64,000 bases of DNA from Bacteroidia bacterium (lineage in GTDB: Bacteria > Bacteroidota > Bacteroidia > JANWJV01): NCBI GenBank assembly GCA_025451785.1, contig JANWJV010000007.1:1596-65595 (forward strand), read 5' to 3'. Each line of letters opens with the position of its first letter. The stretch's first letter is position 1. Shown here in pieces: positions 41,576-60,875 of the stretch. Under the pieces are notes generated by a model. That model did not search any database. It had not been told where the DNA came from and saw only the letters and a program-made list of their open reading frames with translations. A program made the translations under genes and the position numbers.

Positions 41576-41661
41576 GCGGTTATCTATATATACACAATAT
41601 TACTAAATGTTTGGGGATAAATACTAACGGCAAAAGGGCCGCTTTATTATAATTTAGCGGT

Positions 41662-46284: not shown

Positions 46285-46294
46285 GTCCTTTTCT

Positions 46295-47022: not shown

Positions 47023-47096
47023 GGTCCCGTAGTTCAACTGGATAGAATGACAGATTCCGGTTCTGTTGGTTGGGGGTTCGACTCCCTCCGGGACCG
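47023..47096 (+). tRNA. tRNA-Arg (CCG)
   Basis: Hand-folded. Acceptor GGTCCCG/CGGGACC, anticodon stem ACAGA/TCTGT with loop TTCCGGT, T arm GGGGG-TTCGACT-CCCTC. CCA is not encoded. Confidence 0.9.
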
Positions 47097-49340: not shown

Positions 49341-49356
49341 TTTTTTGTCATTTTAA

Positions 49357-49382
49357 ATGGCCGGAGCAAATGCCCCGGCCAT
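49357..49382 (-). terminator. intra-operon hairpin (possible attenuator/partial terminator) after ytxH
   Basis: ATGGCCGG / CCGGCCAT 8-bp stem with a 10-nt loop. On the minus strand it is followed by TTAAAATG, which is a weak U tract. Confidence 0.35.
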
Positions 49383-49401
49383 GGTATTCCCTTTTCATTC
49401 T

Positions 49402-49668
49402 TTAACTGAGTACCTTGGTCTTGGCCGCGCCGTTATCAGCAAACTCTTTTGCCTTGCCTTTCACGGTTTCCACTTCCTCCTTCAGCGTGTCAATAATGCC
49501 CTTGAGCTTCTCTTTCATCGCGTCGCTCAGCTCACCGCCTTTCGCGCTCAGCTTTTTACGTGTTTCACTTCCTTTGTCAGGAGCGAACAGGATCCCCAGG
49601 ACTCCGCCGATGGCAGCGCCCACTAGTAAGGCTCCAATTAATTTTCCAGTGTTGTTTGAATTTTCCAT
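49402..49668 (-). CDS. YtxH domain protein
   Basis: GALLVGAAIGGVLGILFAPDKGSETRKKL N-terminal motif plus an amphipathic helical tail. Confidence 0.8.
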   Translation of the reverse strand: MENSNNTGKLIGALLVGAAIGGVLGILFAPDKGSETRKKLSAKGGELSDAMKEKLKGIIDTLKEEVETVKGKAKEFADNGAAKTKVLS

Positions 49669-49696
49669 TGTTGTTTTATTATTAGTTGTGTTTGAT

Positions 49697-49852
49697 TTAA
49701 AGGGTCTTGCCTCCTCTGATAACCCTGAGTATAACGGAGATGATCGCTATCACCAGCAGGATATGAATGATCCCTCCTGCATTGTAGCCTGCGAAGCCAA
49801 TTAGCCAGAGAATTATAAATATTACTGCTATTCCATAGAGAAGATTGTTCAT
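49697..49852 (-). CDS. lmo0937-family small membrane protein (51 aa)
   Basis: MNNLLYGIAVIFIILWLIGFAGYNAGGIIHILLVIAIISVILRVIRGG from the ATG at 49852. The track start at 49921 is an extension. Confidence 0.7.
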   Translation of the reverse strand: MNNLLYGIAVIFIILWLIGFAGYNAGGIIHILLVIAIISVILRVIRGGKTL

Positions 49853-49880
49853 GATCGTTGTCTTTAGTGTCCATGTGAAA

Positions 49881-50114
49881 TTATTTTGAGGCCTTTTTCT
49901 TTGTCTTGTCGGGGCGAACATCGATCCCGGTACGGTCGGGGTTCCTCTCCCTTTTCGGCTTATCGAACCTGCCTACACCTTTCTTTTTCTCTGTACTGTC
50001 GTTGTCCGTATCGCTGCCGCTCTTGTCCGAATCATTGTCAGGGTCGGTATGGTCCCCGTCGCTGCCAGCTTCAATGTTGGGTTTCTTTCTCTTTTTCTTG
50101 TCGATGGTCTTCAT
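49881..50114 (-). CDS. highly charged, predicted-disordered small protein (77 aa, hydrophilin-like)
   Basis: The ATG at 50114 gives MKTIDKKKRKKPNIEAGSDGDHTDPDNDSDKSGSDTDND..KKKASK. It lies 10 nt after the OMP gene stop. Confidence 0.5.
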   Translation of the reverse strand: MKTIDKKKRKKPNIEAGSDGDHTDPDNDSDKSGSDTDNDSTEKKKGVGRFDKPKRERNPDRTGIDVRPDKTKKKASK

Positions 50115-50124
50115 GTCCTTATTA

Positions 50125-50694
50125 TTAAAGGTGCAGTGCCAGTCCGAAAGTGGAGATGCCCGAGGAGAGATCGAGGAACAGTCCCAGCTTGTTGCTGAGG
50201 TGCAGTTCCGTACCAATGTGTCCGTCGAAATACAAACCGCTGGAACCGTGCTGAACGGTGGTCTCACCGTAATAGCCGTTCTCCCAGGTTGTTTTTCGTA
50301 TCGCGAAACCCAGTGAGCCCGCCAGGTAAAAATCCCATTTGGGGCCCGCGTTCAGCAGTTCGTCAAAGTAGTACGAACCTTTTACCCCGATGGGGATCAC
50401 CGTTTGGCGATAGGAGTAGTTCTTGTACGGATAGTTCGGATTTCCCCAGTAGTAATAGTTCTGGTAGGAATACACCGTCACGAAAGGCGCAAGGGTAAAG
50501 TTATGCGCCGCGGTTATCTCAAAGTCGGCATGTACTACGGGCATGGAATGGCCCACGTACCCGTAGTATCCTATTCCCGCGCCCAGGTTGAGGGCCCCGC
50601 CATAGCCCTCTTCTGAAACTGTTTCCTGTGCTGTTGCCTTGGCGCCTCCCATCATTAGAAGAGAAAGCAGCGCCGTATAGATGATCGTTTTCAT
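50125..50694 (-). CDS. outer membrane beta-barrel protein (189 aa)
   Basis: Signal peptide, alternating aromatic/Gly beta-strand pattern, and a C-terminal ...FGLALHL. Confidence 0.7.
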   Translation of the reverse strand: MKTIIYTALLSLLMMGGAKATAQETVSEEGYGGALNLGAGIGYYGYVGHSMPVVHADFEITAAHNFTLAPFVTVYSYQNYYYWGNPNYPYKNYSYRQTVIPIGVKGSYYFDELLNAGPKWDFYLAGSLGFAIRKTTWENGYYGETTVQHGSSGLYFDGHIGTELHLSNKLGLFLDLSSGISTFGLALHL

Positions 50695-50720
50695 GTTTCT
50701 TGATTATTGATATTTTGATA

Positions 50721-51362
50721 TTAGATCTTGAAGCCCAGTGTTAGCTGGATCCATTTGTTTTTGTAACGCGGCGTGGAAGAGGTACCGTCGCCATTATTGG
50801 TCTGAAAATCCCATCCCAGCCTTCCGGATACCACGATGTGCGACACATTGATGTCAGCTCCGGCCACAAAGCCGAGCACGTTCTTACGTATATTGTCGTT
50901 GTTGAACTCCTTCTCCTGCTCCACACTGTTTACTCCCAGTGTATACACATTCTTCTCGTTCATGAGATAGGAGTATTGGGGGCCTGCCACGATCGTTAAG
51001 AACTCGCCTGGTTTTACCTGGAGCTGCAGCGGCACGTCGATATAAGTGGTGGTCCTTGAAAAGGAATACGGAGATCCCAGCAAAGTGCCCGATCCCTGGA
51101 ATCCTTTCTGGGAAATGAGCAGTTCCGGCTGGAAGCCCAGGTATTTCCCGATAGGGATACCGAAGAAAATGCCGCCGGCAAAACCGATCTTGTTATCGGC
51201 CCTGAAGTCCTGGCCTTGTTCATCCCAAACATTAGAAGAGTTGATGCCGGCCTTAACGCCGAACGCGAACAGTTCACGCGGATCTGTTTCCTCATCCTGC
51301 GCGCTCAGTGTCATCCCTATGGGCAACGACAGCAAGCAAGTTATAATAAATGATCTTTTCAT
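50721..51362 (-). CDS. porin-family outer membrane beta-barrel protein (213 aa)
   Basis: The ATG at 51362 gives signal peptide MKRSFIITCLLSLPIGMTLSAQ. The C-terminus WIQLTLGFKI is typical of OMP barrels. Confidence 0.7.
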   Translation of the reverse strand: MKRSFIITCLLSLPIGMTLSAQDEETDPRELFAFGVKAGINSSNVWDEQGQDFRADNKIGFAGGIFFGIPIGKYLGFQPELLISQKGFQGSGTLLGSPYSFSRTTTYIDVPLQLQVKPGEFLTIVAGPQYSYLMNEKNVYTLGVNSVEQEKEFNNDNIRKNVLGFVAGADINVSHIVVSGRLGWDFQTNNGDGTSSTPRYKNKWIQLTLGFKI

Positions 51363-51398
51363 TGTTTTTGTTTTAGTTGTGAATTCATTTTCACGGTA

Positions 51399-51463
51399 CA
51401 AAGTTGCGCTGTTTTCAAAGGGAATGTGTTACACGAAACCTTCAAAGGCTTACATCATTCACA
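51399..51463 (-). promoter_or_regulatory. tripartite stress-island promoter/operator, instance A (OMP...AI-2E operon)
   Basis: Minus strand reads TGTGAA-TG-ATGTAA-N16-TGTAAC-N21-CAACTTTG. There are 36 nt to the ATG at 51362. Confidence 0.7.
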
Positions 51464-51719
51464 TTCCGTGTTTCAGGGGAGGGCTCTCCGGCCGGCCCAG
51501 CATATACCTGTTGAGCATCGATCTCAGCGAGTCGTGATATTTTTGCAGGCTCTTCACGTTCACTTCTGGATTTTTTTCATCAGGGATGGATACCTTCATT
51601 TCATCCAGGTATTTCGAAAGCTCCGGGTACTTCTCTTTTATACGCATGGTGATCTCCAGGATCTTCGCGTTAAGGTCTCCTACCGTCTCTTTGTGTATGT
51701 CAGTGTCTTTTCTGCTCAT
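51459..51719 (-). CDS. hypothetical protein (86 aa) co-transcribed with catalase
   Basis: ATGA overlap with the catalase stop. Helical and charged. Confidence 0.5.
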   Translation of the reverse strand: MSRKDTDIHKETVGDLNAKILEITMRIKEKYPELSKYLDEMKVSIPDEKNPEVNVKSLQKYHDSLRSMLNRYMLGRPESPPLKHGM

Positions 51720-53218
51720 TGGTGAATGTTATGTCTCAGATGTTCCGTTTCCATTTCTTTGGTGCTAAGCCCCAGGGCCGCTGCTATGGCCATGCCCAGT
51801 TGGATATCCACACGAAAAAAATGGCACAGCTGGCGTTGAATGATCTCCTCTTTCTTTTCCCCGCTGATCCCTTTCATGGAGCTTACGATATTGCTTGCGA
51901 GGTTCTTCCTGTCCTGCTCGTTCATTGCTTTTCGATACAGCATGCCGGGCTGTGAATAGTGGTCGTTATCATTTTCATTGCGATCAAACCAATCGGCCAG
52001 ATAGGATCCGAGCTCCATCGCAGGTTCTTTATAGCTTTCGTCAGCAACGATCTCGTCGAAACTGTTCGGCCGGTAGTTCGGTTCCGCTCCGCCATTGTCG
52101 CTGGTCTGCATCAGCCCGTCGCGCTGGTAATTAGTTACCGCATAGGGACATTTGTTCACGGGGATCTGTTCGTAGTTCACCCCCAGGCGGTAGCGGTGCG
52201 CGTCGGGATAGGACAGCAAACGCCCCTGGAGCATCTTATCGGGCGAATAGCCGATACCGTTCACCACATTGGCGGGGGCAAAAGCAGCCTGCTCAACGTC
52301 CCTGAAATAATTCTCCGGGATCTCATTCAATTCCATTGTCCCCACGTCGATCAAGGGAAATTCCTGGTGCCCCCATACTTTGGTAACATCAAAAGGGTTC
52401 CACGGAAAGGCCTTCGCCTGTTCGTTGGTCATTACCTGGATCTTAAGGGCCCATTTAGGAAAATCCTTCCGGCCGATCGCCTCTACCAGGTCGCGCTGCG
52501 CATGATCGGGGTCGGTGCCGCGCATTTCACCTGCTTCTTGTCCATTGAAATTCTTAATTCCCTGCCCGGTCACGAAATGGAACTTTACCCAAACCCTTGC
52601 ATTATCCTTGTCGAGGAGTGAAAAGGTATGGCTTCCGAAACCATTCATGTTACGGTACGAAAAGGGAGTTCCCCGGTCGCTCATCAGGATCATCACCTGG
52701 TGCAGGCTCTCAGGGTTCAGGCTCCAGAAATCCCACATCATGGTAGGACTCTTGCAATTGGTCTTTGGGTCGCGCTTTTGTGTGTGAATGAAGTGAGAGA
52801 ATTTTTTCGGGTCCTTGATGAAGAACACCGGCGTATTATTGCCTACAAGGTCCCAGTTACCATCTTCCGTATAGAACTTAAGGGCAAACCCCCTGGGGTC
52901 CCGCTCGCTGTCGGCGCTCCCTTTTTCTCCTCCTACCAATGAGAACCTGGCAAACATCCCTGTTTGTTTCCCGATCTCCGAAAACAGCTTCGCTTTGGTG
53001 TACCGGGTAATGTCGTGCGTTACGGTGAAGGTACCGAAGGCTCCTGTGCCTTTGGCATGAACCACCCTTTCGGGGATACGTTCACGGTTGAAGTGGGCCA
53101 TATCCTCATGCAGAAAATAGTCTTGCAGAAGGATCGGGCCGCGGTTTCCCACGGTCATCGAGTTTTCGAACTCGAAGTAGGGCCGTCCTCCGGCGGTAGT
53201 CAGCTTCTTCTTTTTCAT
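51716..53218 (-). CDS. monofunctional heme catalase
   Basis: 500 aa. FNRERIPERVVHAKGTGAFG and GRLLSYPDAHRYRLG signatures. Confidence 0.95.
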   Translation of the reverse strand: MKKKKLTTAGGRPYFEFENSMTVGNRGPILLQDYFLHEDMAHFNRERIPERVVHAKGTGAFGTFTVTHDITRYTKAKLFSEIGKQTGMFARFSLVGGEKGSADSERDPRGFALKFYTEDGNWDLVGNNTPVFFIKDPKKFSHFIHTQKRDPKTNCKSPTMMWDFWSLNPESLHQVMILMSDRGTPFSYRNMNGFGSHTFSLLDKDNARVWVKFHFVTGQGIKNFNGQEAGEMRGTDPDHAQRDLVEAIGRKDFPKWALKIQVMTNEQAKAFPWNPFDVTKVWGHQEFPLIDVGTMELNEIPENYFRDVEQAAFAPANVVNGIGYSPDKMLQGRLLSYPDAHRYRLGVNYEQIPVNKCPYAVTNYQRDGLMQTSDNGGAEPNYRPNSFDEIVADESYKEPAMELGSYLADWFDRNENDNDHYSQPGMLYRKAMNEQDRKNLASNIVSSMKGISGEKKEEIIQRQLCHFFRVDIQLGMAIAAALGLSTKEMETEHLRHNIHQ

Positions 53219-53286
53219 GTTTATACCAATGAAGCACGGAAATGATCTATCTAAATACCAATGTGCCTTTTTCTTTTATCTTTTGA

Positions 53287-53439
53287 TCAGAGCTTTTTAC
53301 CTTCCACGACCTTCATCATAAAGGCCATTACGGCCATTACCAGAAGAATATGAATGAGTCCGTTAGCGCCAAAACCGAAATGACCGACAACCCAGGCGGT
53401 GACCAGCAGCATCGCGACTATGTACCAGGTGTTTTTCAT
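53287..53439 (-). CDS. lmo0937-family small membrane protein (50 aa; absent from the ORF track)
   Basis: Hand translation gives MKNTWYIVAMLLVTAWVVGHFGFGANGLIHILLVMAVMAFMMKVVEGKKL. ATGA overlap with the upstream lipoprotein gene. It is a paralog of 49697-49852. Confidence 0.65.
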   Translation of the reverse strand: MKNTWYIVAMLLVTAWVVGHFGFGANGLIHILLVMAVMAFMMKVVEGKKL

Positions 53440-53879
53440 TGTTTTACATTTCTGGTGCCAAAATCCTTAAATGCTTTACCCAGTTCGTCCATATTGCGAC
53501 CGAACTCCGCCTTGAACTGTTCCCAGTTGGCCGCTCCTTCTGCTTCATAGTCGTCCATCAGCTTTTTGAAATCACCGTTCTTCTGTTCCAGTTCGACGAT
53601 CTTCTTATTGTAATCCACTCTCGCTTCGCGTTTCTGGTTCTCTACTCTTGCCTTGAAGTCAGCAATGCTCTTTTCGTTGGCAGCGAACCTTTTTGCGGTC
53701 TCTTGCCTGTAAATGTCAATGTCCGCCAGGTAGGCTTCGTTGGCCTCTTCGAGGTTCTTGTTCGCCTCTATCAGTTTGTCTTGTGCGATCTCTACCTTTT
53801 CGGCAGATGAGTTACAGCTCTGTATGAAGGCTCCCGCCATGCACACACCTACTGCTAGTGATATAATTGAATTTTTCAT
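53436..53879 (-). CDS. coiled-coil lipoprotein (147 aa)
   Basis: Lipobox AFIQSC-N, then heptad-rich helical sequence. Confidence 0.6.
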   Translation of the reverse strand: MKNSIISLAVGVCMAGAFIQSCNSSAEKVEIAQDKLIEANKNLEEANEAYLADIDIYRQETAKRFAANEKSIADFKARVENQKREARVDYNKKIVELEQKNGDFKKLMDDYEAEGAANWEQFKAEFGRNMDELGKAFKDFGTRNVKQ

Positions 53880-53907
53880 TTTTTTGTTTTTTTAATTGAT
53901 TTGGATA

Positions 53908-53972
53908 CAAAGGTGGGTACTCAGGATGCTGCAAACGTTACAGAAGTTCGGAAAGAACTTACATCATTCACA
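53908..53972 (-). promoter_or_regulatory. tripartite stress-island promoter/operator, instance B (lipoprotein-lmo0937-catalase operon)
   Basis: Minus strand reads TGTGAA-TG-ATGTAA-N16-TGTAAC-N21-CACCTTTG. There are 28 nt to the ATG at 53879. Confidence 0.7.
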
Positions 53973-53983
53973 CAGGGTCAAGG

Positions 53984-54475
53984 TCAGGGAATAAATTTCA
54001 TGATCACATAAACCCCCGTACCTACGCATGCAAAGGCAAAGAAGAACATCGCCAGGTATTTGCTGATGCCGAACTCTTTTATAAGCACCCGCACCGGGTA
54101 GGTAAGTATCCCATAAATAAGGGAGGTAAGTTTCCTCCATGCCTTCTCTCCTTTGATGACGTAGTCGGTCGCTCCCTTGCGAAAGGAATCGATCGCTACC
54201 GCGATGTCTTCGTTGGAAGACAGCATGATCACCTCCGTTTGAGGATTGATCTTCTTGATCGCCATCAATATGTCGTTCCCGTTCTCGCCGTCCAGGTAAT
54301 AGTCCAGTATAACGATGTTGGTATCGCTTCCCAGCACTTTCAGCGCGCTCTCGCCACTATAGTAAGTAGAGATGTTCAGCTCAGTCCCGAACCTTTTATC
54401 CAGGTAAGCCCGCAGCCCTTCTAACATCAACGCGTTATCGTCAATGATAAACAGGTTAAGTGGTTGAGTCTTCAT
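53984..54475 (-). CDS. receiver-only response regulator with C-terminal transmembrane anchor
   Basis: REC domain with FIIDDN, the acceptor Asp in VILDYYL, and Lys in DYVIKG. It ends in the TM helix YLAMFFFAFACVGTGVYVIMKFI. No output domain. Confidence 0.8.
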   Translation of the reverse strand: MKTQPLNLFIIDDNALMLEGLRAYLDKRFGTELNISTYYSGESALKVLGSDTNIVILDYYLDGENGNDILMAIKKINPQTEVIMLSSNEDIAVAIDSFRKGATDYVIKGEKAWRKLTSLIYGILTYPVRVLIKEFGISKYLAMFFFAFACVGTGVYVIMKFIP

Positions 54476-54509
54476 TTGTGTTGGTTTAATGTGGTTAGTT
54501 CAAAGGGCC

Positions 54510-54785
54510 TTACAGGAGGATGATGAGCAGGAGTATAATAATGATGACAGCTCCTACTGAAATATATACTCCTCCTCCACTGCTCTCACGGGCCTTTTTG
54601 CGCAGCGCTTTCCTTTCGCTCCTGTCGGGACGCGTGTTATCGCCGGGACCCAGGGTGATCACGGATGGTTCGTAGACACTTTCGGTCGGTACGGCCATCG
54701 TTTGTTCCGGGGCCGCGTTTGCGCTGCCTGAGAGGCTGGCAAGGGCCAGGAAAACTGTGAGTAAACATGTTTTGATCGTTTTCAT
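54510..54785 (-). CDS. small secreted/tail-anchored protein (91 aa)
   Basis: Signal peptide MKTIKTCLLTVFLALASLSGSANA from the ATG at 54785 (an alternative ATG lies at 54815). C-terminal TM GAVIIIILLLIILL. Confidence 0.5.
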   Translation of the reverse strand: MKTIKTCLLTVFLALASLSGSANAAPEQTMAVPTESVYEPSVITLGPGDNTRPDRSERKALRKKARESSGGGVYISVGAVIIIILLLIILL

Positions 54786-54827
54786 ATTTTTTGGTTTTTG
54801 TTTCCGTCGTTTCATACGGAGTGATAG

Positions 54828-55352
54828 TTATTTCTTATGTCCTTTACCGTTGTCATGTCCGCCTTTTTGGGCAGGCGCGGCACTTTTGCCACTACTCTTG
54901 CTTGCCGGCTGGGCCGGCTTACCTGTCGAATTTGCTTTTGTCTTCTGGTTACCTTTTCCAGGTTTTACTCCTATGGTCTTCTGTTCTTTGCCGCGGTAGC
55001 CCTTTGCGTATTTCACTTTATGGCTCGCAAAATTGTTGTAGGGAGCCGTGCCGCGATAATCGCTAAGCACTACCTTATACCCGTAATACAGATCGTAATT
55101 GCGGTATTGTGTAGGCAGGTAGGTTCTGTGCAGCCACACTCCTCCTCCGTAATAAATGAACAGGGAGGTTTGAATATCATAATAGGCTTCCACATCGGGC
55201 AGGTAGTAATACCGCACTTCGGTATATCCCACGGGACCCCAGGGGGGAGGGGAGCCAATGTTCACATTCACGGTCACCTGGGCGCTGAGGGTGCCTGACA
55301 GCAAGAGAACAATTCCTACTGTTATATCTTTCAGTGTTTTCATAGTATTCAT
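54828..55352 (-). CDS. secreted Tyr-rich protein with Lys/Gly-rich tail (174 aa)
   Basis: Signal peptide, YYYLPDVEAYYDIQTSLFIYYGGGVW core, and tail KPGKGNQKTKANSTGKPAQPASKSSGKS. I do not recognise a family. Confidence 0.55.
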   Translation of the reverse strand: MNTMKTLKDITVGIVLLLSGTLSAQVTVNVNIGSPPPWGPVGYTEVRYYYLPDVEAYYDIQTSLFIYYGGGVWLHRTYLPTQYRNYDLYYGYKVVLSDYRGTAPYNNFASHKVKYAKGYRGKEQKTIGVKPGKGNQKTKANSTGKPAQPASKSSGKSAAPAQKGGHDNGKGHKK

Positions 55353-55370
55353 ATTAGTTAATTACTTCTG

Positions 55371-55435
55371 CAAAGGTGCGCCTCTGAGCACGCGAAAGTG
55401 TTACACAAGCCCTTGTTACTGTTGTAACATTCACA
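55371..55435 (-). promoter_or_regulatory. tripartite stress-island promoter/operator, instance C (secreted proteins + REC-TM operon)
   Basis: Minus strand reads TGTGAA-TG-TTACAA-N16-TGTAAC-N21-CACCTTTG. There are 18 nt to the ATG at 55352. Confidence 0.65.
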
Positions 55436-55465
55436 CATCGGGCCTTTTATTATAACACGAGACCC

Positions 55466-55485
55466 GGCTCCCTGTAAAGGGGGCC
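55466..55485 (-). terminator. hairpin after ice-binding gene 1
   Basis: 8-bp stem GGCTCCCT / AGGGGGCC (one G-U pair) with a 4-nt loop. There is no clear U tract. Confidence 0.4.
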
Positions 55486-55508
55486 AGGCCTGGTGTATTT
55501 ACTATGAT

Positions 55509-57128
55509 CTACTGTTTCGCAACCAGCCTGCCTGATTGCATGATATTGCCCTTGCTGGTCAGTTCGTAGAAATATATCCCCGAAGGAAGGCTTCCTGTTT
55601 CAAGGATGCTGGTCTGTTGGCTGATAAAGGCCTTCATCACCACTTCTCCCAGAACATTATACATCCTCCACTCACAATTGCCGATCAATGATACGTCCAT
55701 AAGCCGGACGCTCACAGAGGAGCCGAAAGGATTGGGATAAATGGTTACCGATCCTTCGGCAGGCGCCAGGGAATTGATCCCCAATGTTCCGCAGTTGGAA
55801 GGTATGGAAGTAGCCACTGCCGTCACCGCAGCCGTAGTAAACGTTCCAGTGGTGGTAAGTGCCCGGCCGTCGAGCGTGACACCGGTCTTTAAGTTGATGG
55901 CTCCGTTATTAGCGATCAGCGTTCCCCTGAAAACAGAGTAATCGTTGATGCTTACCGCGCCGTCGATCTTCCAGAACACATTCTTTGCCTGTGTTCCATT
56001 GGTGAGGATCACCCTCGAGTAGGTGCTGGTGGACATTGCTCCGTTCACCTGTATAACGAACACCGCGTTTGCGTTGCCGCGCCCGTTAAGGTAAAGAGTA
56101 TCGGTGAATGTCACCGCCGCTTTCATGATATAGGTATGCGGGGTGAGGACCAGGTTCCGCCCAAACTGGGCAGGATACAATAGCTCGATGTCCGACGGAA
56201 GCGTGTTCAGGTAGGTATAAACAGTACCAAGGTCGGCCGCACATGCAGCGGTAGAAGCGTCAGGTATAGGATGGATAGCACCCGTTACATTCAAGGAATT
56301 GAAACCGGTAGTTAAACCTACATTGGTTCCAACATCTCCGGTAACATAGGTTACGCCCGCGTTGGTAAGCGCCCCGTTTCCGGAGAACAGACCATAACAA
56401 GCTGTAGAAGCCAGGTTAGCAGCAGCAGGTCCTGTAAGGACAGCGCTTCCGCAGCCAACAGGCGTATACGCCATCACGCCGTCAACAGTAATCGCCCCTG
56501 CAGTGCTCAGCGCTCTCCCTTCAAGGGTATCGCCTGCATTCATATTGATGGCCGCGTTGTTCGCAACAACAGTTCCTCTCATAGTGGTACCTGAAGCCAT
56601 GCTTACCAGTCCTTCTATTTTCCAGAACACATTACATGCCTGCGCGCCATTGATCAGTTTGACCTTGGCATTCGCATTGGTAGACAAAGGCCCCTGGATC
56701 TTCATAATGAACACCGCGTTCGCATTGCCTTGAGCGTTAAAGGTAAGGCTCTGGTTAATGGTTGCCGCAGCAGAAATAGAATACACGCCGGGAATAAGCA
56801 CCTGGCCGTTCCCGAGCAAAGGCGCGGGAAAGAAGGTGGCAGTGGTGGCGTTCAATTGGTTATAGGCGATCAGCAGGTCGGCAGCACATTGTGCCGTGGC
56901 GCCATTGTTATTTTGCATCCCGCCGTTCACATTCCCGAAACCGGTGCTGGAACCGTTGTTGGTCCCTACGTCGCCCGTGATCTGTGAAATGCCTGAATTA
57001 CCCATCGCTCCGTTAGTGGAGAACAGGACAAAATTGACGGCTGTGCCCAAATTGGGTTGCCCGAAGCTGATAAATGGCATTAGGAGCAGTATACCTGCTG
57101 ATAATGCATGGAGTAGTTTGGTTTTCAT
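55509..57128 (-). CDS. two-domain ice-binding family (DUF3494) protein with T9SS CTD
   Basis: Signal peptide. Two copies of LGTAxNFVLFSxNGA..N.G.SQITGDVGTN...NANAVF(I/V)...NVFWKI(E/D)G...GRAL(S/T)T.G. CTD IYPNPFGSS...GIYFYEL. Confidence 0.85.
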   Translation of the reverse strand: MKTKLLHALSAGILLLMPFISFGQPNLGTAVNFVLFSTNGAMGNSGISQITGDVGTNNGSSTGFGNVNGGMQNNNGATAQCAADLLIAYNQLNATTATFFPAPLLGNGQVLIPGVYSISAAATINQSLTFNAQGNANAVFIMKIQGPLSTNANAKVKLINGAQACNVFWKIEGLVSMASGTTMRGTVVANNAAINMNAGDTLEGRALSTAGAITVDGVMAYTPVGCGSAVLTGPAAANLASTACYGLFSGNGALTNAGVTYVTGDVGTNVGLTTGFNSLNVTGAIHPIPDASTAACAADLGTVYTYLNTLPSDIELLYPAQFGRNLVLTPHTYIMKAAVTFTDTLYLNGRGNANAVFVIQVNGAMSTSTYSRVILTNGTQAKNVFWKIDGAVSINDYSVFRGTLIANNGAINLKTGVTLDGRALTTTGTFTTAAVTAVATSIPSNCGTLGINSLAPAEGSVTIYPNPFGSSVSVRLMDVSLIGNCEWRMYNVLGEVVMKAFISQQTSILETGSLPSGIYFYELTSKGNIMQSGRLVAKQ

Positions 57129-57157
57129 GTTGGTTTTTGTGTTTAAGATTTATAAGG

Positions 57158-57222
57158 CAAAACTGCGAAGTATTGAACCCCCGCGCGTTACACAACCTTT
57201 TCAATAACTTACATGATTCACA
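57158..57222 (-). promoter_or_regulatory. tripartite stress-island promoter/operator, instance D (ice-binding gene 1)
   Basis: Minus strand reads TGTGAA-TC-ATGTAA-N16-TGTAAC-N21-CAGTTTTG. There are 29 nt to the ATG at 57128. Confidence 0.7.
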
Positions 57223-57241
57223 TTCTACCTTCAAGATCAAA

Positions 57242-57284
57242 ATAGGCAAGGCCCGCTACAAATATGAAGCGGGCCCTTGCCTAT
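57242..57284 (-). terminator. rho-independent terminator after ice-binding gene 2
   Basis: ATAGGCAAGGCCCGCT / AGCGGGCCCTTGCCTAT long stem with one bulge. On the minus strand it is followed by TTTTGATC. Confidence 0.75.
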
Positions 57285-57294
57285 GAAAAGTTTA

Positions 57295-58911
57295 CTACCT
57301 GGCAACCACACGGCCCGACTGAACGGTCGTACCATTGTTGATTACCCTGTAAGAATAGATCCCAGGAGCAAGGTCATTGCTTTCAAGGGTATTGGTTTGT
57401 TTCGTGAGGTTTGCATACATCACTTCGGCTCCCAGTACATTGTACATCCTCCATTCGTAATTACCGGCCTGCATAGCGCCGTTGATAACAATGGTGACAG
57501 AGCCGCTGAACGGGTTCGGGTAAATGCTAACTGCTTCGCCCGTATTCCCGGCCTCAAAAGAGGCGATGCCTGTGGTGAGACAGCCGGGAGGTATCACCGC
57601 ATCAATGGCTGCAGTGTTTACAGCACCGGTGGTGGTAAGAGCCCTGCCGTCGAGCGTGACCCCGGTGGTGAGGTTGATCGCGCCGTTGTTGGAAACGATC
57701 GTACCACGGAAAACAGAATAGTCGTTGATATCCACAGCTCCTTCGATCTTCCAATACACGTTCTTTGCCTGGGTTCCGTTGATCAGAATGACCTTTGAAT
57801 ACGTACTGGTAGAAAGGGCGCCATTCGCCATGATCACAAATACCGCGTTGGCATTGCCGCGAGCATTGAGGTACAGCGTATCAGTAAAGGTTACAGCTGC
57901 TTTCATAATGTATGTATGCGGTGTAAGAACCAGGTTGTTCCCGAATTGTGCAGGGTACAGCAGTTCTATGTCGGGGCTGAGCGTGTTAAGATAGTTGTAA
58001 ACGTTCAGCAGGTCGGCTGCGCATGTTGTGGTAGATCCATCGGGAATAGGATGGATAGCGCCTGTTACGTTCAACGAGTTGTAACCGGTGGTAAGACCGA
58101 GATTCGTTCCGATATCGCCTGTAACGTAGGTTACACCTGTATTGGTCACCGGTCCGTCGGACGAAAAGATGGCGTAACATATTGTGGACGCAAGCGCGGG
58201 AGCGGCGGGCCCTGTAAGAACCACACTTCCGCAACCGATGGGCAAATAAGCCATCACACCGTCAACCGTAACAGCGCCGGTGGTAGAAAGCGCCCTGCCT
58301 TCAAGCGTATCTCCTGTGCTCATGTTAATGGCAGCGTTGTTGGCAACAATAGTTCCCCGCATGGTAGTGCCTGAAGCCAGGCTTACCAGCCCTTCCACTT
58401 TCCAGAACACATTGCATGCTTTGGCACCGTTGATCAGCTTTACCTTTGCATTTGCGGCGGCGGAAAAGGGTCCTTCTATCTGAATAATAAATACCGCGCT
58501 GGCACTGCCTTTTGCATTCAGAAACAGGTCCAGGTTGAGTGTTGCAGCAGCGGCGATGGAATACACGCCCGCAATAAGAGTGTCTCCGTTTCCGAGCAAT
58601 GATGAGGGAAAAAAGGTGGGAATGGTGGCATCCAACTGATTGTACGCTATCAGAAGGTCAGCCGCGCACTGTGCGCTTGCGCCATCCTGATCATGCATCC
58701 CGCCGTTCACGTTGCCGAAACCGGTGCTGATACCATTGTTGGTGCCTACGTTGCCAGTAAGCTGTGATATGCCTGTATTGCCTACTGCCCCATTCGTGGA
58801 GAAGAGAACAAACTCGGCAGCTGTCCCCAGGTTGGGTGCCTGCCCGAAGTTTATCGTCGGCATTAAGAACAGGATACCTGCTGTTAATACACTGAGTAGA
58901 TTGGTTTTCAT
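57295..58911 (-). CDS. two-domain ice-binding family (DUF3494) protein with T9SS CTD, paralog of 55509-57128
   Basis: The ATG at 58911 (or 58917) gives MKTNLLSVLTAGILFLMPTINFGQ. Same two-domain pattern as the paralog. CTD IYPNPFSGS...GIYSYRV. Confidence 0.85.
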   Translation of the reverse strand: MKTNLLSVLTAGILFLMPTINFGQAPNLGTAAEFVLFSTNGAVGNTGISQLTGNVGTNNGISTGFGNVNGGMHDQDGASAQCAADLLIAYNQLDATIPTFFPSSLLGNGDTLIAGVYSIAAAATLNLDLFLNAKGSASAVFIIQIEGPFSAAANAKVKLINGAKACNVFWKVEGLVSLASGTTMRGTIVANNAAINMSTGDTLEGRALSTTGAVTVDGVMAYLPIGCGSVVLTGPAAPALASTICYAIFSSDGPVTNTGVTYVTGDIGTNLGLTTGYNSLNVTGAIHPIPDGSTTTCAADLLNVYNYLNTLSPDIELLYPAQFGNNLVLTPHTYIMKAAVTFTDTLYLNARGNANAVFVIMANGALSTSTYSKVILINGTQAKNVYWKIEGAVDINDYSVFRGTIVSNNGAINLTTGVTLDGRALTTTGAVNTAAIDAVIPPGCLTTGIASFEAGNTGEAVSIYPNPFSGSVTIVINGAMQAGNYEWRMYNVLGAEVMYANLTKQTNTLESNDLAPGIYSYRVINNGTTVQSGRVVAR

Positions 58912-58948
58912 TTTCATTGGTTTTAGTGGTGAATACATTTTCACTTCG

Positions 58949-59013
58949 CAAAGATGCAGCCCATGCCCAGGACTTATATTACATGACTTTGTCAATTACT
59001 TGTATGATTCACA
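58949..59013 (-). promoter_or_regulatory. tripartite stress-island promoter/operator, instance E (ice-binding gene 2)
   Basis: Minus strand reads TGTGAA-TC-ATACAA-N16-TGTAAT-N21-CATCTTTG. There are 37 nt to the ATG at 58911. Confidence 0.65.
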
Positions 59014-59036
59014 CAATGCACTTTAGGGGTAAATGA

Positions 59037-59071
59037 AAAGCGCCGTTGCGGTAATACCGCAACGGCGCTTT
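59037..59071 (-). terminator. rho-independent terminator after ice-binding gene 3
   Basis: Perfect palindrome AAAGCGCCGTTGCGGTA-A-TACCGCAACGGCGCTTT. On the minus strand it is followed by TCATTT. Confidence 0.75.
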
Positions 59072-59090
59072 ATGTATCATTGAACTCTTA

Positions 59091-59831
59091 CTACTTCACA
59101 ATGGTATTAGCCGCCATCGTAACCGCACCGGTCCTTGCCAGTGCCATGCCGTCGAGCGTGGCTCCGGTATTGAAGGAGATGGATTGCATGGCCATTACGA
59201 CCCCTTTAAAGACCGACGTGGTCCCGAAGGTTGCCGAGCTGCCTACCTGCCAGAAAATGTGGGAGGCTTGCGCTCCGCCTTTCAGGATCACCTGGCGGCC
59301 CGAAGTGGTGGTAAGCGTGGATGCCATCTGAAGAATGAACACCGCGTTCGCATCTCCTTTCGCGTCGAATGTAAGGTCGCCCGATGATATGGCAAACGAG
59401 GACGTGGATTTGTAAAGCCCGGGTGTAAGTGTAAGCCCGCCCAGGTTTCCCGACAAGGTAACCATGTCAGGAGCTGTGCGACCGGCCGCGTCATTATAAG
59501 CCGCGGTCAAGTCCAGTTTCGCCTGGCTGGCAGTGGGGTCGTTCACGTGTTTGGTTCCTACAATGATCCCGGGAGGAAAACCGCCCAGTGAAGAACCGGG
59601 ACTCAGGCCGACATCGCCGGTGATCTGTGTGGCGCCGGTACTGGTAACGGCCGATCCCGCAAGTACAGCAAAGGCGGCTGCGCCGTTCAGCGTCACCATG
59701 CCGTGCACGGTCGTTTGAGTAGGGATCACAATAGGATTATTGCTCGCCGGCTGCGCCTTATCTTTCTTGCAGGCCGCAATAACAACAACCGATACAATGG
59801 CAAGGGTTGTCAATAATTTTAGATTTTTCAT
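59091..59831 (-). CDS. single-domain ice-binding family (DUF3494) lipoprotein
   Basis: Lipobox VVIAAC-K. Canonical AAAFAVLAGSAVTSTGATQITGDVGLSPGSSLGGFPPG, DANAVFILQM, HIFWQVGSSATFG and GMALARTGAVTM motifs. No CTD. Confidence 0.9.
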   Translation of the reverse strand: MKNLKLLTTLAIVSVVVIAACKKDKAQPASNNPIVIPTQTTVHGMVTLNGAAAFAVLAGSAVTSTGATQITGDVGLSPGSSLGGFPPGIIVGTKHVNDPTASQAKLDLTAAYNDAAGRTAPDMVTLSGNLGGLTLTPGLYKSTSSFAISSGDLTFDAKGDANAVFILQMASTLTTTSGRQVILKGGAQASHIFWQVGSSATFGTTSVFKGVVMAMQSISFNTGATLDGMALARTGAVTMAANTIVK

Positions 59832-59872
59832 TTGATCTGTCTTAACGCGGTAAATGATTTTTTACTGCGTTA

Positions 59873-59937
59873 CAAAGGTGAGCACCTTCCGGAGGATCCG
59901 TATTGCATTACTTTGGGAAAGAGTTACATAATTTCGA
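59873..59937 (-). promoter_or_regulatory. tripartite stress-island promoter/operator, instance F (ice-binding gene 3)
   Basis: Minus strand reads TCGAAA-TT-ATGTAA-N16-TGCAAT-N21-CACCTTTG. The distal hexamer is degenerate. There are 41 nt to the ATG at 59831. Confidence 0.55.
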
Positions 59938-59952
59938 TCGTCTGTTTAAACG

Positions 59953-59986
59953 AAAAAGGACAGGTTCTCTTTCCTGTCCTTTTTTT
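59953..59986 (-). terminator. terminator after csbD (symmetrical A/T-flanked hairpin)
   Basis: AAAAAGGACAGG-ttctcttt-CCTGTCCTTTTTTT. U tracts are present in both orientations. Confidence 0.75.
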
Positions 59987-60002
59987 GTCCTTCATAGGAG
60001 AA

Positions 60003-60227
60003 TTAAACCTTCTCCGGCTGGCCCTTTTGGATGATGTTGATCACCTCTTCGCGCTTTTTGTTGAGCTTGCTTTCAAGCCTCCCAAGCAGTTCGCTCTCCT
60101 TGCCGGTTTCGAACTTGAGGTCCGAATCGGTCAGCTGAGAAAATTTGCCTTTAAGCACTTTTGCTTGTTCATCCCAGTCACCTGTGATCTTAAACGGAGC
60201 GTCACTTTTGTTGTTTGTTGTGTCCAT
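60003..60227 (-). CDS. CsbD family general stress protein
   Basis: The ATG at 60227 gives MDTTNNKSDAPFKITGDWDEQAKVLKGKFSQLTDSDL.F..GKE.EL.G.L, a CsbD-like pattern. The track start at 60257 is non-ATG. Confidence 0.8.
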   Translation of the reverse strand: MDTTNNKSDAPFKITGDWDEQAKVLKGKFSQLTDSDLKFETGKESELLGRLESKLNKKREEVINIIQKGQPEKV

Positions 60228-60254
60228 GTTCTTGTTGATTGATTGATTCAGGGA

Positions 60255-60319
60255 CAAAGGTGAGGCTATCTTCCGGCAGGGTACTTATATAGTTATGTCA
60301 AAATATTACACATATCACA
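60255..60319 (-). promoter_or_regulatory. tripartite stress-island promoter/operator, instance G (csbD)
   Basis: Minus strand reads TGTGAT-AT-GTGTAA-N16-TATAAG-N21-CACCTTTG. There are 27 nt to the ATG at 60227. The distal hexamer overlaps the AraC gene stop. Confidence 0.55.
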
Positions 60320-60875
60320 TGTTTTCGAGGTTGCCCTTTCGCTTTTGTTTCAGCTTCTTGTAAAAGGAAGGGGAAAGACCGGTGATCTTTTTGAACTGGT
60401 TCGAGAGGTGCGCAACACTGCTGTAATGCAGCCTGTACGAGATCTCCGTAAGGTTCAGTTCGTCGTAAAGGAGCAATTCTTTTACTCTTTCGATCTTATG
60501 AACAATGATGAACTGCTGAATGGTAATGCCCTTAACTTCTGAGAATATGTTGGCCAGGTAGGTGTAGTCATAGCCCAGTTTTTCGCTTATGTATTCCGAA
60601 TAGTTCGTTTTGGGCAGCTCATCAGAGTAATGGATCATTTCGGTGATCACATTCTTTATCTTCTCGATCAGGATGCTCCTCTTCGTATCGAGCAGTTCAA
60701 GGCCTGAACGGCGAAGGTTCTCTTTCAGTTGCTGCCGCTGCTGCTGCGTAATATCTTCCATGATCTCCACCAGGCCCAGGTCAACCACAACGTAGCGCAG
60801 CCCAAGCTTTTTCAGCTCTTCCTTCACCATCATTTTGCAGCGCAAACTGACCATATACTTGATGTACAACTTCAT
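60315..60875 (-). CDS. AraC family transcriptional regulator with small N-terminal ferredoxin-like domain
   Basis: The ATG at 60875 gives MKLYIKYMVSLRCKMMVKEELKKLGL. C-terminal AraC HTH: LTEISYRLHYSSVAHLSNQFKKITGLSPS. Confidence 0.85.
   Translation of the reverse strand: MKLYIKYMVSLRCKMMVKEELKKLGLRYVVVDLGLVEIMEDITQQQRQQLKENLRRSGLELLDTKRSILIEKIKNVITEMIHYSDELPKTNYSEYISEKLGYDYTYLANIFSEVKGITIQQFIIVHKIERVKELLLYDELNLTEISYRLHYSSVAHLSNQFKKITGLSPSFYKKLKQKRKGNLENM

Follow-up and report, generated by a model that had tools for sequence, protein, structure and literature searches.

Class II activation by members of the AraC/XylS family is known from XylS at Pm, AraC at araI1-I2, RhaS and MelR. These activators bind DNA through a C-terminal AraC domain that holds two helix-turn-helix motifs, and they act at two direct repeats about 21 bp apart (centre to centre) that lie roughly between -70 and -35. 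The core elements of the promoter are weak, its -35 region being overlapped or replaced by the proximal repeat. In some cases the regulator gene is also autoregulated. The locus described here has a likely counterpart of each of these features, the last of them judged from the order of genes around site-driven regulator paralogs. It differs in that the N-terminus of the candidate regulator appears to be an HMA-like fold of ~60 residues and not a cupin or sugar-binding domain, in that the promoter belongs to the -33/-7 type of Bacteroidota, and in that the targets would form a dispersed stress regulon rather than a catabolic operon.

Within the Bacteroidota, start-site maps contain non-canonical motifs, namely PM2 of B. 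thetaiotaomicron (PMC7366714) and SM4-SM6 of F. psychrophilum (PMC9723704). PM2 is described as a near-palindrome that has elements at -10 and -30; SM4 is a sigma-54 motif, SM5 reads TAnnTTGY and SM6 is a CGT motif of the ECF type. Like the element reported here, these are alternative promoter classes of this phylum that are tied to genes for stress or stationary phase. However, a tripartite TGTGAA/TGTAA/TGTAAC array is described for none of them, PM2 being set apart by its description and not by its logo. We found no published description of this stress regulon or its promoter in the literature.

Seven promoter sites and their transcription units

The original prediction placed one rigidly spaced 65-bp element in front of seven minus-strand transcription units in the window, that is, the whole 64,000-nucleotide stretch of DNA analysed. 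All seven instances were found where they had been placed, each with the predicted hexamers and the same N2, N16 and N21 spacers. All are intergenic, and the ATG does follow 18-41 nt past the last G. The proximal half, TGTAAC-N21-CANNTTTG with at most one mismatch, matched the window five times against 0.24 expected, and 0 of 100 shuffles got to five; the upstream half, TGTGAA-N3-T-N2-AA-N16-TGTAA with at most two mismatches, matched six times against 0.33 expected. As a non-circular test we used an external matrix of 70 columns, built only from sites in other genomes (loci L001-L119). The seven sites scored between 29.4 and 55.2 bits on this matrix, compared with -6.2 bits for the next-best window position and a maximum of -0.3 over 20 shuffled windows. 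Set against that next-best score, even the degenerate sites at 59873-59937 and 60255-60319 genuinely belong to the set. No eighth site was found when the 64-kb window was scanned with the external matrix. The observation of a shared promoter is confirmed.

Site 1 (51399-51463, minus strand; 51.1 bits; start site, predicted here and for the other sites below, ~51394) has its distal TGTGAA box at 51458-51463, the middle TGTAA at 51450-51454, the proximal TGTAAC at 51428-51433 and the -7 box CAACTTTG at 51399-51406. Positions 3-5 of its distal box are the stop codon (51459-51461) of an 86-aa ORF. Unit 1 (47634-51362, minus strand, ATG at 51362) encodes two OMP-like proteins, a charged 77-aa peptide, DUF5670, YtxH, a 114-aa membrane protein, a 90-aa protein and an AI-2E transporter, and the gene run YtxH/114-aa/90-aa/AI-2E is also present at four other loci (L017, L021, L098, L076). 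Site 2 (53908-53972, minus strand; 55.2 bits; start site ~53903; ATG 53879) precedes unit 2 (51459-53879, minus strand), which encodes an sll1863-family lipoprotein, DUF5670, catalase and an 86-aa protein. Site 3 (55371-55435, minus strand; 51.6 bits; start site ~55366; ATG 55352) has TACAA as its middle box. The first two genes of unit 3 (54510-55352, minus strand) encode a 174-aa secreted protein with a PPPWGP...YYYLPD motif and a 101-aa membrane-anchored protein, and homologs are found downstream of sites in L003, L085, L050, L048 and L118. The last gene of the unit (53984-54475, minus strand) encodes a REC protein (Pfam Response_reg) with a hydrophobic C-terminal tail.

Sites 4 (57158-57222, minus strand; 45.9 bits; start site ~57153; ATG 57128) and 5 (58949-59013, minus strand; 49.1 bits; start site ~58944; likely ATG 58917) precede units 4 (55509-57128) and 5 (57295-58917), also on the minus strand, whose products are paralogous two-domain ice-binding proteins with a T9SS sorting tail. 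A start for unit 5 at ATG 58938, inside an inverted repeat, was rejected in favour of 58917 (MKMKTNLL). Site 6 (59873-59937, minus strand; 33.5 bits; start site ~59868; ATG 59831) has the degenerate distal box that had been claimed for it, TCGAAA, and TGCAAT as the proximal box; unit 6 (59091-59831, minus strand) encodes a single-domain ice-binding lipoprotein. Site 7 (60255-60319, minus strand; 29.4 bits; start site ~60250; ATG 60227) reads TGTGAT/TGTAA/TATAAG and precedes unit 7 (60003-60227, minus strand), which encodes a CsbD-like 74-aa protein.

Two inverted repeats begin at a predicted +1. GTGAA-AATGAA-TTCAC lies at 51379-51394 on the minus strand in unit 1 (MFE -4 kcal/mol, z -3.0) and GTGAA-AATGTA-TTCAC at 58929-58944 on the minus strand in unit 5 (MFE -3.5 kcal/mol, z -1.9). 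The same element as in unit 1 was observed at about 46 of 243 sites in the loci listed.

Product identities were assigned with Pfam and NCBIfam. These supported three Ice_binding proteins (two with a T9SS tail), catalase, YtxH, two DUF5670 proteins, the OMP beta-barrel, the AI-2E transporter, the REC protein with its hydrophobic C-terminal tail, an AraC HTH_18 protein and the sll1863-family lipoprotein. The products called holin-X-like and hydrophilin-like had no family match in Pfam or NCBIfam, and the csbD label was kept as CsbD-like, by transitive homology only.

Anatomy of the element and its recurrence across Bacteroidota

The extended consensus is aATG-TGTGAAT-n-ATGTAAC-(T-rich)-N-AArTT-r-TGTAAC-aCtT-N-AA-N-c-t-nA-c-C-TTTG. 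Its core consists of two direct copies of a ~12-15-bp unit (AAT-n-rTGTAAC-nn-wT) exactly 21 bp apart, and self-similarity of the profile is highest at a 21-bp shift (6.4), followed by shifts of 9 and 30. An extra TGTG(AA) box is present on the distal copy, one helical turn upstream, with no clear counterpart on the proximal repeat. The hexamers had been read either as direct-repeat activator sites or as an alternative-sigma -35; the two repeats at 21 bp favour the former, and no ECF sigma support was found for the latter.

We determined the composition of the -7 box in 106 sites that had been selected without using that region. The first base was C in 37, T in 31 (29%), A in 20 and G in 18, and C was preferred at positions 60-61 of the element. 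The distance between the proximal box and the -7 box is rigid, with T62 in 105 of 106 sites and A59 in 96 of 106, and T62-T64 are nearly invariant. Since the first base varies while A59 and T62-T64 hardly do, the sequences indicate a weakened housekeeping TAnnTTTG -7 box and no distinct element, and the proposal of a specific CAnnTTTG box separate from the housekeeping one was dropped. The T-poor first base and the C at 60-61 could instead reflect a different sigma specificity. The Bacteroidota housekeeping box is located at -12 to -5 (PMC9723704). Taking the final G as -5, as in housekeeping Bacteroidota promoters, the repeats would span about -73 to -30 and the proximal copy would occupy the position expected of the -33 element.

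A cross-genome search with a 20-base fixed-spacing pattern, for which we estimated 1-5 chance matches, found the pattern at at least 119 genome loci. Among the 119 loci listed, 118 have a Bacteroidota name in the record title and one is titled only 'bacterium'. They contain ~240 sites that are spread over many families, are almost always intergenic and face a gene start. Of 240 sites in the loci listed, just 10 fall within an open frame of at least 150 aa, compared with 72% of random 65-mers. The bias toward gene starts that the original prediction called for in other genomes is present, as an ATG-ORF begins 20-60 nt downstream (median 38 nt) of 67% of sites and 17% of controls. Positions left free in the search pattern were also conserved among the recovered sites. 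Among the first downstream genes in the loci listed are those for CsbD, Ice_binding, OmpA, OMP_b-brl, YtxH, DUF5670, BON, Pyrid_ox_like, DUF4142 and HTH_18 proteins; sll1863-like lipoproteins, Usp, cupin and MlaD/F recur as well, and catalase is contributed to the regulon gene set by this window. Judged from these sites, the motif is conserved across the phylum Bacteroidota. The number of loci, the position at gene starts and the recurrence of the same kinds of gene strengthen the earlier core reading of a fixed-geometry promoter/operator of a stress regulon.

A candidate AraC-type regulator and competing explanations

The stop codon of the gene at 60315-60875 (minus strand) falls within the distal box of site 7. 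This gene encodes our candidate activator, a 186-aa protein with Pfam HTH_18 and HTH_AraC matches. The AlphaFold2 model (pLDDT 83) has an N-terminal beta-alpha-beta-beta-alpha-beta domain (residues ~3-62), a linker helix (65-82) and, at the C-terminus, a DNA-binding domain of the AraC/XylS type that contains two helix-turn-helix motifs. Using Foldseek, the DNA-binding domain matched MarA, SoxS and AraT (MarA/SoxS-type entries 1bl0, 1xs9, 7w5w), and weak matches to HAH1, CCS and ZiaA (E ~0.08-0.12) suggest that the N-terminal domain may be HMA-like. The protein is 83-91% identical to proteins named from several Bacteroidota families, which is unusual in the AraC/XylS family and agrees with how little the DNA boxes vary.

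AraC homologs (E 1e-44 to 1e-85) occur in 23 of the 119 8-kb loci listed, where AraC is the sole DNA-binding family enriched. Among 27 homologs at other loci, 12 likewise end in a stop codon that is part of a site's distal box. The same overlap is found in loci selected by protein (H. hydrossis L120, Melioribacteraceae L122) and at a 44%-identical AraC paralog with a variant box (L123:774-838). Seven of the 27 homologs are directly downstream of a site, and five of these seven are among eight paralogs then followed by a hybrid kinase (seven identified by script and L010 by inspection). No site was found upstream of the window's own AraC gene. The lack of an AraC gene within 8 kb of ~80% of the motif loci listed (96/119) is as expected for a dispersed regulon, though it does not support one. 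AraC paralogs are themselves downstream of sites, so co-localisation might also arise if the AraC proteins were targets and not the regulator. Nevertheless, co-localisation and site geometry strongly support the AraC protein among the trans factors originally proposed, and most likely the shared promoter is switched on by this conserved regulator encoded next door.

The other two candidates fared less well. The REC protein has no DNA-binding domain and was set aside as a DNA-binding factor; since it is homologous (E 1e-21) to 143-145-aa REC proteins that end AraC/hybrid kinase/REC operons elsewhere, it is more plausible as a partner in signalling or as a feedback element. The ECF sigma (46295-46852), part of an ECF sigma/anti-sigma pair at 44854-46852, has one weak homolog in the 119 loci listed, and sigma-70-family genes occur in only three of them. 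Hybrid kinases are frequent in the motif loci listed. In some cases a site is followed by an AraC paralog, then by a hybrid histidine kinase, which contains PAS and is built as HisKA-HATPase-REC-Hpt, and then by a single-domain receiver. We also found an AraC/PAS-kinase fusion (P0140) and a tandem protein with two DNA-binding domains (P0148). Ten Pfam-scanned members of the kinase/receiver cluster contained PAS, HisKA, HATPase, REC or PP2C and no DNA-binding output. Gene order and one fusion suggest a link between the kinase and REC proteins and the regulator.

An alternative sigma promoter, with TGTAAC as -35, nAcCTTTG as -10 and the AraC, kinase and REC genes as simple regulon members, would account for the rigid spacing, for the AAC within TGTAAC that is typical of ECF -35 elements, and for AraC paralogs downstream of sites. 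The mostly non-T first base, the C favoured at 60-61 and the ECF sigma/anti-sigma pair also fit. We consider it unlikely, because the housekeeping -7 box is recognisable in A59 and T62-T64 and lies equally far from the gene start (cf. PMC9723704), a conserved CGT-type -10 is absent 16-18 nt past AAC (information at most 0.08 bit at 52-55), and boxes conserved to ~-73 reach too far for a sigma factor. The scarcity of sigma-70-family genes, including relatives of the window's ECF sigma, argues against it too, and the duplicated 12-15-bp unit at 21-bp spacing would be left unexplained.

Just as doubtful is a CRP/FNR-type or winged-helix response regulator that is encoded away from the sites and binds TGT(G/A)AA, with the AraC proteins as targets or co-regulators. 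TGTGA is the CRP half-site, OmpR/PhoB-type regulators typically also use direct repeats, hybrid kinases are common in the loci listed and 96 of these lack a nearby AraC gene. However, the site is non-palindromic, unlike CRP/FNR sites, no further DNA-binding family is enriched in the 119 loci listed, the scanned kinase/receiver proteins have no such output, and both the stop codon overlap and the motif-driven AraC paralogs would stay unexplained. A non-regulatory repeat (MITE or REP-like) or an RNA gene or motif is effectively refuted. Seven similar elements do lie on one strand within 9 kb, and two precede paralogous genes that were possibly duplicated along with their upstream regions. Yet only the boxes are conserved while the spacers differ, the same boxes recur facing gene starts at the ~240 sites, and terminal repeats are absent; there was no Rfam family match even at E up to 1, and the element is upstream of the predicted start site. 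The differing spacers and recurring boxes also uphold the original preference for protein-contact geometry over a copied mobile repeat.

Proposed mechanism and comparison with described systems

We think it probable, with some reserve, that the 65-bp element is an activator-dependent promoter of a conserved Bacteroidota stress-protection regulon on which the AraC protein acts. Two protomers of the 186-aa HMA-like/AraC protein, or of its paralogs, would bind the two direct repeats 21 bp apart, the proximal repeat being bound over the -33 region. By analogy with XylS at Pm or AraC at araI1-I2, the bound protomers would recruit RNA polymerase with the housekeeping sigma. Transcription would begin ~5 nt past TTTG and yield a short A-rich leader before the ATG. 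More speculatively, a phosphorelay may modulate the regulator by protein-protein contact, with positive feedback, as suggested by the motif-driven regulator paralogs that are followed in other genomes by a hybrid kinase and a receiver related to the REC protein of the window. The shared promoter points to a Bacteroidota general stress response without a known published description.

MarA, SoxS and Rob of Enterobacteria resemble this system, by the Foldseek likeness, in their AraC-type domain, and they too activate scattered stress genes by way of an asymmetric box whose position and orientation are fixed with respect to the core promoter. However, MarA and SoxS act as monomers, have no domain besides the DNA-binding one and use a single 20-bp box, whereas the present protein has a further N-terminal domain and its box is duplicated; the genes here are general-stress, envelope and ice-binding genes and there efflux and redox genes. 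Bacteroides HTCS and REC-AraC proteins (YesN/AraT type) likewise couple an AraC-type output to phosphotransfer proteins, and by sequence the regulator's best matches in the PDB are to AraC domains, those of AraT, YesN and an HTCS protein. In contrast to these, the AraC protein here has no receiver, the kinase-REC-Hpt protein and the receiver are separate and encoded downstream, and the fused form occurs in one protein cluster only (P0140).

In gene content the regulon resembles those of SigB (Firmicutes), RpoS (Proteobacteria) and EcfG-NepR-PhyR (Alphaproteobacteria), with CsbD, YtxH, catalase, BON/OsmY-like, GSP26-like, Usp and ferritin-like proteins. Hybrid kinases and single-domain receivers adjoin the regulator in these sigma-governed responses as well (compare RsbK-RsbY, RssB and PhyR-type signalling), and positive feedback on the regulator operon, as proposed here, is also shared. 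What sets the present system apart is an apparent housekeeping-type -7 box with activator sites and no linked sigma gene in the loci listed, so that its master regulator would be a transcription factor and not a sigma factor.

The element in the window and in other genomes

The original prediction held that TGTGAA-N2-ATGTAA-N16-TGTAAC-N21-CAnnTTTG stands at seven positions on the minus strand, and we read this pattern at each of them as stated (sites 1 to 7, with left ends at 51399, 53908, 55371, 57158, 58949, 59873 and 60255). Two of the seven, 59873-59937 and 60255-60319, are degenerate copies. With at most one mismatch, the proximal half of the pattern matched five times in the window where 0.24 matches were expected, and the distal half with at most two mismatches matched six times where 0.33 were expected. 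The window was also scored with a fixed-spacing matrix that was derived solely from sites of other genomes, which makes this a non-circular test of the window sites. The seven sites scored 29-55 bits; the runner-up position in the 64 kb scored -6 and the highest matrix score in shuffled windows was -0.3. All seven are intergenic, with an ATG 18-41 nt past the last G of the -7 box. The proposal that the copies are a shared promoter and not a copied mobile repeat held up, since the spacers differ between the copies. An RNA family or a mobile repeat was ruled out: Rfam gave no relevant match at E up to 1 and holds no family matching the motif, the spacers are not conserved and the sites lie between genes.

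The pattern TGTGAA-N3-T-N2-AA-N16-TGTAA-N22-CANNTTTG was searched for in 596 Gb of sequence, with each species represented by a single genome. We estimate that, with 20 specified bases, chance alone would give 1-5 matches. It matched at least 119 loci and, among the matches listed, 118 are Bacteroidota by record title while one is titled just "bacterium". The listed loci include Chitinophagaceae, Saprospiraceae, Flavobacteriales, Cytophagales, Sphingobacteriales, Prolixibacteraceae, Marinilabiliaceae, Lentimicrobiaceae, Paludibacter and Rikenellaceae, and their sources are mostly lakes, soils, fens, glaciers and wastewater. Bacteroides, Prevotella and Porphyromonas were not among the 119 loci listed. 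In 135 non-redundant sites, columns that the pattern leaves free were conserved as well: AATG 5' of the first box, T7, A9, G11, T12, A26, T28, T29, C36-A-C-T-T40, A50, A51 and C61.

A second scan used columns -4 to 41 alone, leaving the -7 region unused, and gave 252 sites in total, 111 of them new. In 106 of the new sites the -7 box carried A59 in 96, T62 in 105, T63 in 103, T64 in 89 and G65 in 63 (A in 26). Because A59 and T62-T64 are near-invariant at one distance in sites chosen without them, the spacing from the proximal box to the -7 box is rigid. The first base of the -7 box was C in 37, T in 31, A in 20 and G in 18 of these 106 sites, which does not bear out the claim of a distinct CAnnTTTG box. 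Judged by its sequence, the -7 box is probably a degenerate housekeeping TAnnTTTG, not a separate CAnnTTTG element.

The motif profile resembled itself most when shifted by 21 bp, and less strongly when shifted by 9 or 30, and the unit AAT-n-rTGTAAC-nn-wT recurs at motif positions 5-19 and 26-40. This pattern indicates that the element is built of two direct copies of this unit, separated by two helical turns, and of a further TGTG(AA) box a turn upstream of the distal one. A division into two site classes, in which the middle and proximal boxes change together between TGTAA and TATAA, was weak (p = 0.018 over all sites), was not significant in the unbiased subset, and was dropped. Back-to-back sites on opposite strands were seen at L001 (1683-1849, about 37 bp apart) and L019 (116-299, about 54 bp apart), where they drive divergent genes.

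The housekeeping -7 box of Flavobacterium psychrophilum spans -12 to -5 (PMC9723704). If the final G is set at -5 as in that organism, the repeats are predicted to span about -73 to -30 and the proximal TGTAAC -39 to -34. The proximal TGTAAC would then fall where the -33 element TTTG of housekeeping promoters normally is; no conserved copy of that TTTG was found among the sites, and TGTAAC-aCtT takes its position. On the minus strand, transcription from sites 1 to 7 is predicted to start near 51394, 53903, 55366, 57153, 58944, 59868 and 60250, respectively.

Approximately 46 of 243 sites are followed by an inverted repeat, GTGAA-AAnnnn-TTCAC, which mostly begins 4 nt past TTTG, at the predicted +1. 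On the minus strand of the window it is present at site 1 (51379-51394) and site 5 (58929-58944). Compensated variants of the stem occur (GTGGA/TCCAC, GTGAC/GTCAC, GTAAC/GTTAC and GGGAA/TTCCC). Mismatches of the G.U type were as frequent as those of the A.C type (6 and 7), and a fold of -4 kcal/mol makes for a weak stem. On this evidence an RNA hairpin is indistinguishable from a palindromic operator, and the repeat may be either a 5'-terminal mRNA hairpin or an operator. Some long leaders contain another conserved stem-loop, (C)CCGCCAGnnGCGG(G), 3' of the first inverted repeat and often after ACCTG. It lies about 20-45 nt past the -7 box (L094, L106, L090, L072, L049, L088 and L011), and from its sequence it looks like a structured 5' UTR element.

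Position of the sites and the genes downstream

The sites are biased toward gene starts. Ten of 240 lay within an open frame of at least 150 aa, compared to 72% of random 65-mers, and an ATG-ORF began 20-60 nt downstream of 67% of the 240 sites compared to 17% of controls (median 38 nt). In the window, Pfam or NCBIfam backed three ice-binding proteins (two with T9SS sorting tails), catalase, YtxH, two DUF5670 proteins, an OMP beta-barrel, an AI-2E transporter, a sll1863-family lipoprotein, the receiver with a hydrophobic tail and the AraC-type protein. Among 150 first downstream genes, the Pfam matches were CsbD (13), Ice_binding (12), OmpA (9), OMP beta-barrel (8 and 6), YtxH (6), DUF5670 (5) and AraC HTH_18 (4), together with BON, Pyrid_ox_like, DUF4142, DUF748, MlaE and others.

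Within the 119 listed loci, CsbD was found by homology at 27, and ORF clustering recovered sll1863-like lipoproteins at 17, MlaF at 14, MlaD at 13, cupin and P-type ATPase at 10 each and Usp at 8. The gene run YtxH / 114-aa / 90-aa / AI-2E, present in the window, recurs in motif loci. The general-stress character that had been claimed for the set was borne out, with CsbD, YtxH, catalase, BON/OsmY, GSP26 and Usp all found among the window and locus genes. This gene content points to a general stress, envelope and freeze-protection regulon. We consider it very probable that a stress regulon is served by this element as a genuine, conserved promoter of the activator type.

A 127-aa family (MKTTKKLGVWMDHSIAHLMEF...) with no Pfam match is present at 12 motif loci, including L086 (7520-7903), and lies directly 3' of the site in L057. 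Close to the regulon cluster, three features carry no motif site: a tRNA gene just outside it (47023-47096, plus strand, 60.7 bits), a gene for a PorZ-like T9SS protein (39239-41599, minus strand), and an ECF sigma factor gene with that of a 476-aa putative anti-sigma factor (44854-46852, minus strand). The PorZ homolog and the T9SS sorting tails of the ice-binding proteins agree with a Bacteroidota origin.

The linked AraC-type candidate regulator and the kinase operons

We compared the window proteins against the ORFs of the 119 listed loci. Homologs of the 186-aa AraC-type protein encoded at 60315-60875 on the minus strand were found at 23 of the 119 (E 1e-44 to 1e-85). For 12 of 27 regulator homologs, as for the gene in the window, the TGA stop codon coincides with bases 3-5 of the distal TGTGAA in the site driving the following gene. 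Both observations support its proposal as a candidate trans factor. The overlap lies at 60315-60319 in the window and recurs at L004, L010, L020, L038, L042, L071, L085, L103, L104, L114, L117, L120, L122 and L123, under names from many families. Of the 27 homologs, 7 lie downstream of a site. The 86-aa ORF of the window also has a stop codon (51459-51461) that overlaps site 1 in the register of the AraC-stop overlaps.

Three of these loci were chosen through the protein. Haliscomenobacter hydrossis has a second paralog with a site on its stop codon, followed by stress genes (DUF892, DUF2383 and Usp, with OMP genes nearby), and in a Melioribacteraceae contig the stop codon of the ortholog carries a site. 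At the third locus, L123, a 44% identical paralog (P0206) has a site in matching register with the variant boxes CGTAAA / TATAA / TATAAC; this co-variation of a divergent regulator with its site, a single informative case, is suggestive.

Pfam matched the regulator to HTH_18 (9.6e-17) and HTH_AraC (2e-12), indicating an AraC domain of about 100 aa at the C-terminus with two helix-turn-helix motifs, and its sequence matches in the PDB were AraT, YesN, XylR and AraC. An AlphaFold2 model (pLDDT 83) has an N-terminal domain, a linker helix and the DNA-binding domain, the last of which is MarA- and SoxS-like by Foldseek. Residues 3-62 are modeled as beta-alpha-beta-beta-alpha-beta, and their sole fold matches were weak ones to the HMA proteins HAH1, CCS and ZiaA. 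The model has no cupin-type N-terminal ligand-binding and dimerisation domain of the kind found in AraC proper. The best-conserved stretch of the N-terminal domain is the loop M-V-S-x-R-C; this loop, M8-V-S-L-R-C13, is invariant and sits at the HMA metal-binding position, where the usual CxxC is reduced to SxxC with one cysteine. The protein is unusually well conserved: the 120 best of at least 8000 scored relatives were 83-91% identical to it, with source names that include Saprospiraceae, Cyclobacteriaceae, Flavobacteriales, Fulvivirga, Reichenbachiella, Ekhidna and a Melioribacteraceae MAG, and at 50% clustering 511 clusters match with E below 1e-30. No curated NCBIfam model names the protein.

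In 8 of 27 cases the gene next after the AraC homolog encodes a hybrid histidine kinase, and the one after that a single-domain receiver of 143-145 aa (L010, L020, L087, L043, L104, L032, L056 and L029; seven were scripted and L010 was added by inspection). The kinase contains coiled-coil repeats (many ANKELVFQNEEKEKRAAEL), two PAS domains, HisKA, HATPase and REC, with an Hpt domain recognized by sequence inspection. The receiver has the C-terminal end KKMEKELSWYMERM and is homologous to the REC-TM protein of the window, a receiver with a hydrophobic tail (53984-54475, minus strand) that itself has homologs at 10 listed loci. A site lies at most 600 nt upstream of 5 of the 8 operons, which implies positive feedback. 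No hybrid kinase gene was found within the 64-kb window.

A tendency to TATAAC in place of TGTAAC in the proximal box was seen at L032 4293-4357, L104 2653-2717, L038 5664-5728, L010 6031-6095 and L043 3204-3268. Such sites precede regulator/kinase operons or, at L010, the gene for a small membrane peptide (MPLLTV...) 5' of the regulator, and in most of them the -7 box ends in A. They may be weaker sites needing more activator. At L055 a REC-PP2C (SpoIIE) protein adjoins a receiver with a membrane tail. In the representative protein library, P0140 joins the HMA-AraC regulator and a PAS kinase in one polypeptide and P0148 has two AraC DNA-binding domains in tandem; either could be a gene-calling artefact.

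How the element may be read

We think the HMA-AraC protein is probably a direct activator that works with the housekeeping sigma factor, a reading based on the anatomy of the element and its linkage to the regulator gene. Two protomers, bound at the two direct repeats, would bring in polymerase with the housekeeping sigma factor at a weak core promoter. The analysis establishes the anatomy, conservation, position and genomic linkage of the element, and we infer binding, activation, sigma choice and start site.

The main rival is that an alternative sigma factor reads the element, which we judge unlikely. The AAC within the proximal box, the mostly non-T first base of the -7 box and a bias toward C at positions 60-61 would suit such a factor. 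However, the -7 box resembles the housekeeping box, the conserved boxes reach to about -73, and an ECF-type CGT -10 element, expected some 16-17 nt after the AAC, is absent (positions 52-55 hold at most 0.08 bit). Nor is a sigma gene linked to the element, with sigma-70-family genes found by Jackhmmer at 3 of the 119 listed loci. The ECF sigma factor of the window (46295-46852, minus strand), which had been named as another candidate, gave one weak homolog at 1 of 119 listed loci and has no site upstream of 46852; being unlinked, and with the CGT-type -10 element absent, it was rejected as the trans factor.

We hold it equally improbable that an unlinked transcription factor of another family binds the element, a reading that would leave the linkage to the AraC gene unexplained. 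No other DNA-binding family was enriched in the 119 listed loci, and Pfam scans of ten proteins from the kinase/receiver cluster gave no DNA-binding domain.

If the HMA-AraC protein is the activator, its signal could arrive through a phosphorelay, with the single-domain receiver acting on the N-terminal domain, although this is speculative. The invariant cysteine of the degenerate metal-binding loop (MxSxxC) may add a redox or metal input. More broadly, and as a tentative proposal that may well prove wrong in part, we suggest a phylum-wide general stress, freeze and envelope response run by the HMA-AraC activator, housekeeping polymerase and the PAS hybrid-kinase phosphorelay. The receiver that ends the relay would contact the regulator and set its activity, and the motif-driven operon of paralog, kinase and receiver would supply positive feedback.

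We found no description of the motif, the regulator or the regulon, and no paper on its joint induction by unrelated stresses or in stationary phase, in the full-text literature searched or in Bacteroidota start-site papers, with the PM2 logo of B. thetaiotaomicron left uncompared. In soil, freshwater, marine and cold habitats Bacteroidota rank among the phyla of highest abundance. [quoted passage not shown] If the proposal is correct, the cis-element has the specificity needed to read out the regulon of any genome from its sequence alone, and a candidate regulator and candidate upstream signalling proteins can be named. It would also give a rationale for the joint expression of ice-binding proteins, catalase, CsbD/YtxH-type proteins and outer-membrane proteins in cold or drying habitats, and a tightly regulated, portable promoter/regulator pair for Bacteroidota genetic tools.

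The class of mechanism is already known, as it is AraC-type class II activation; two direct repeats in such a geometry are bound by XylS at Pm and by AraC at araI1-I2. What would be new is the role, that of a candidate master switch for a general stress regulon spanning the phylum, together with an HMA-like sensor domain and a linked phosphorelay. In this phylum an AraC-type activator would then do the work for which others employ an alternative sigma factor.
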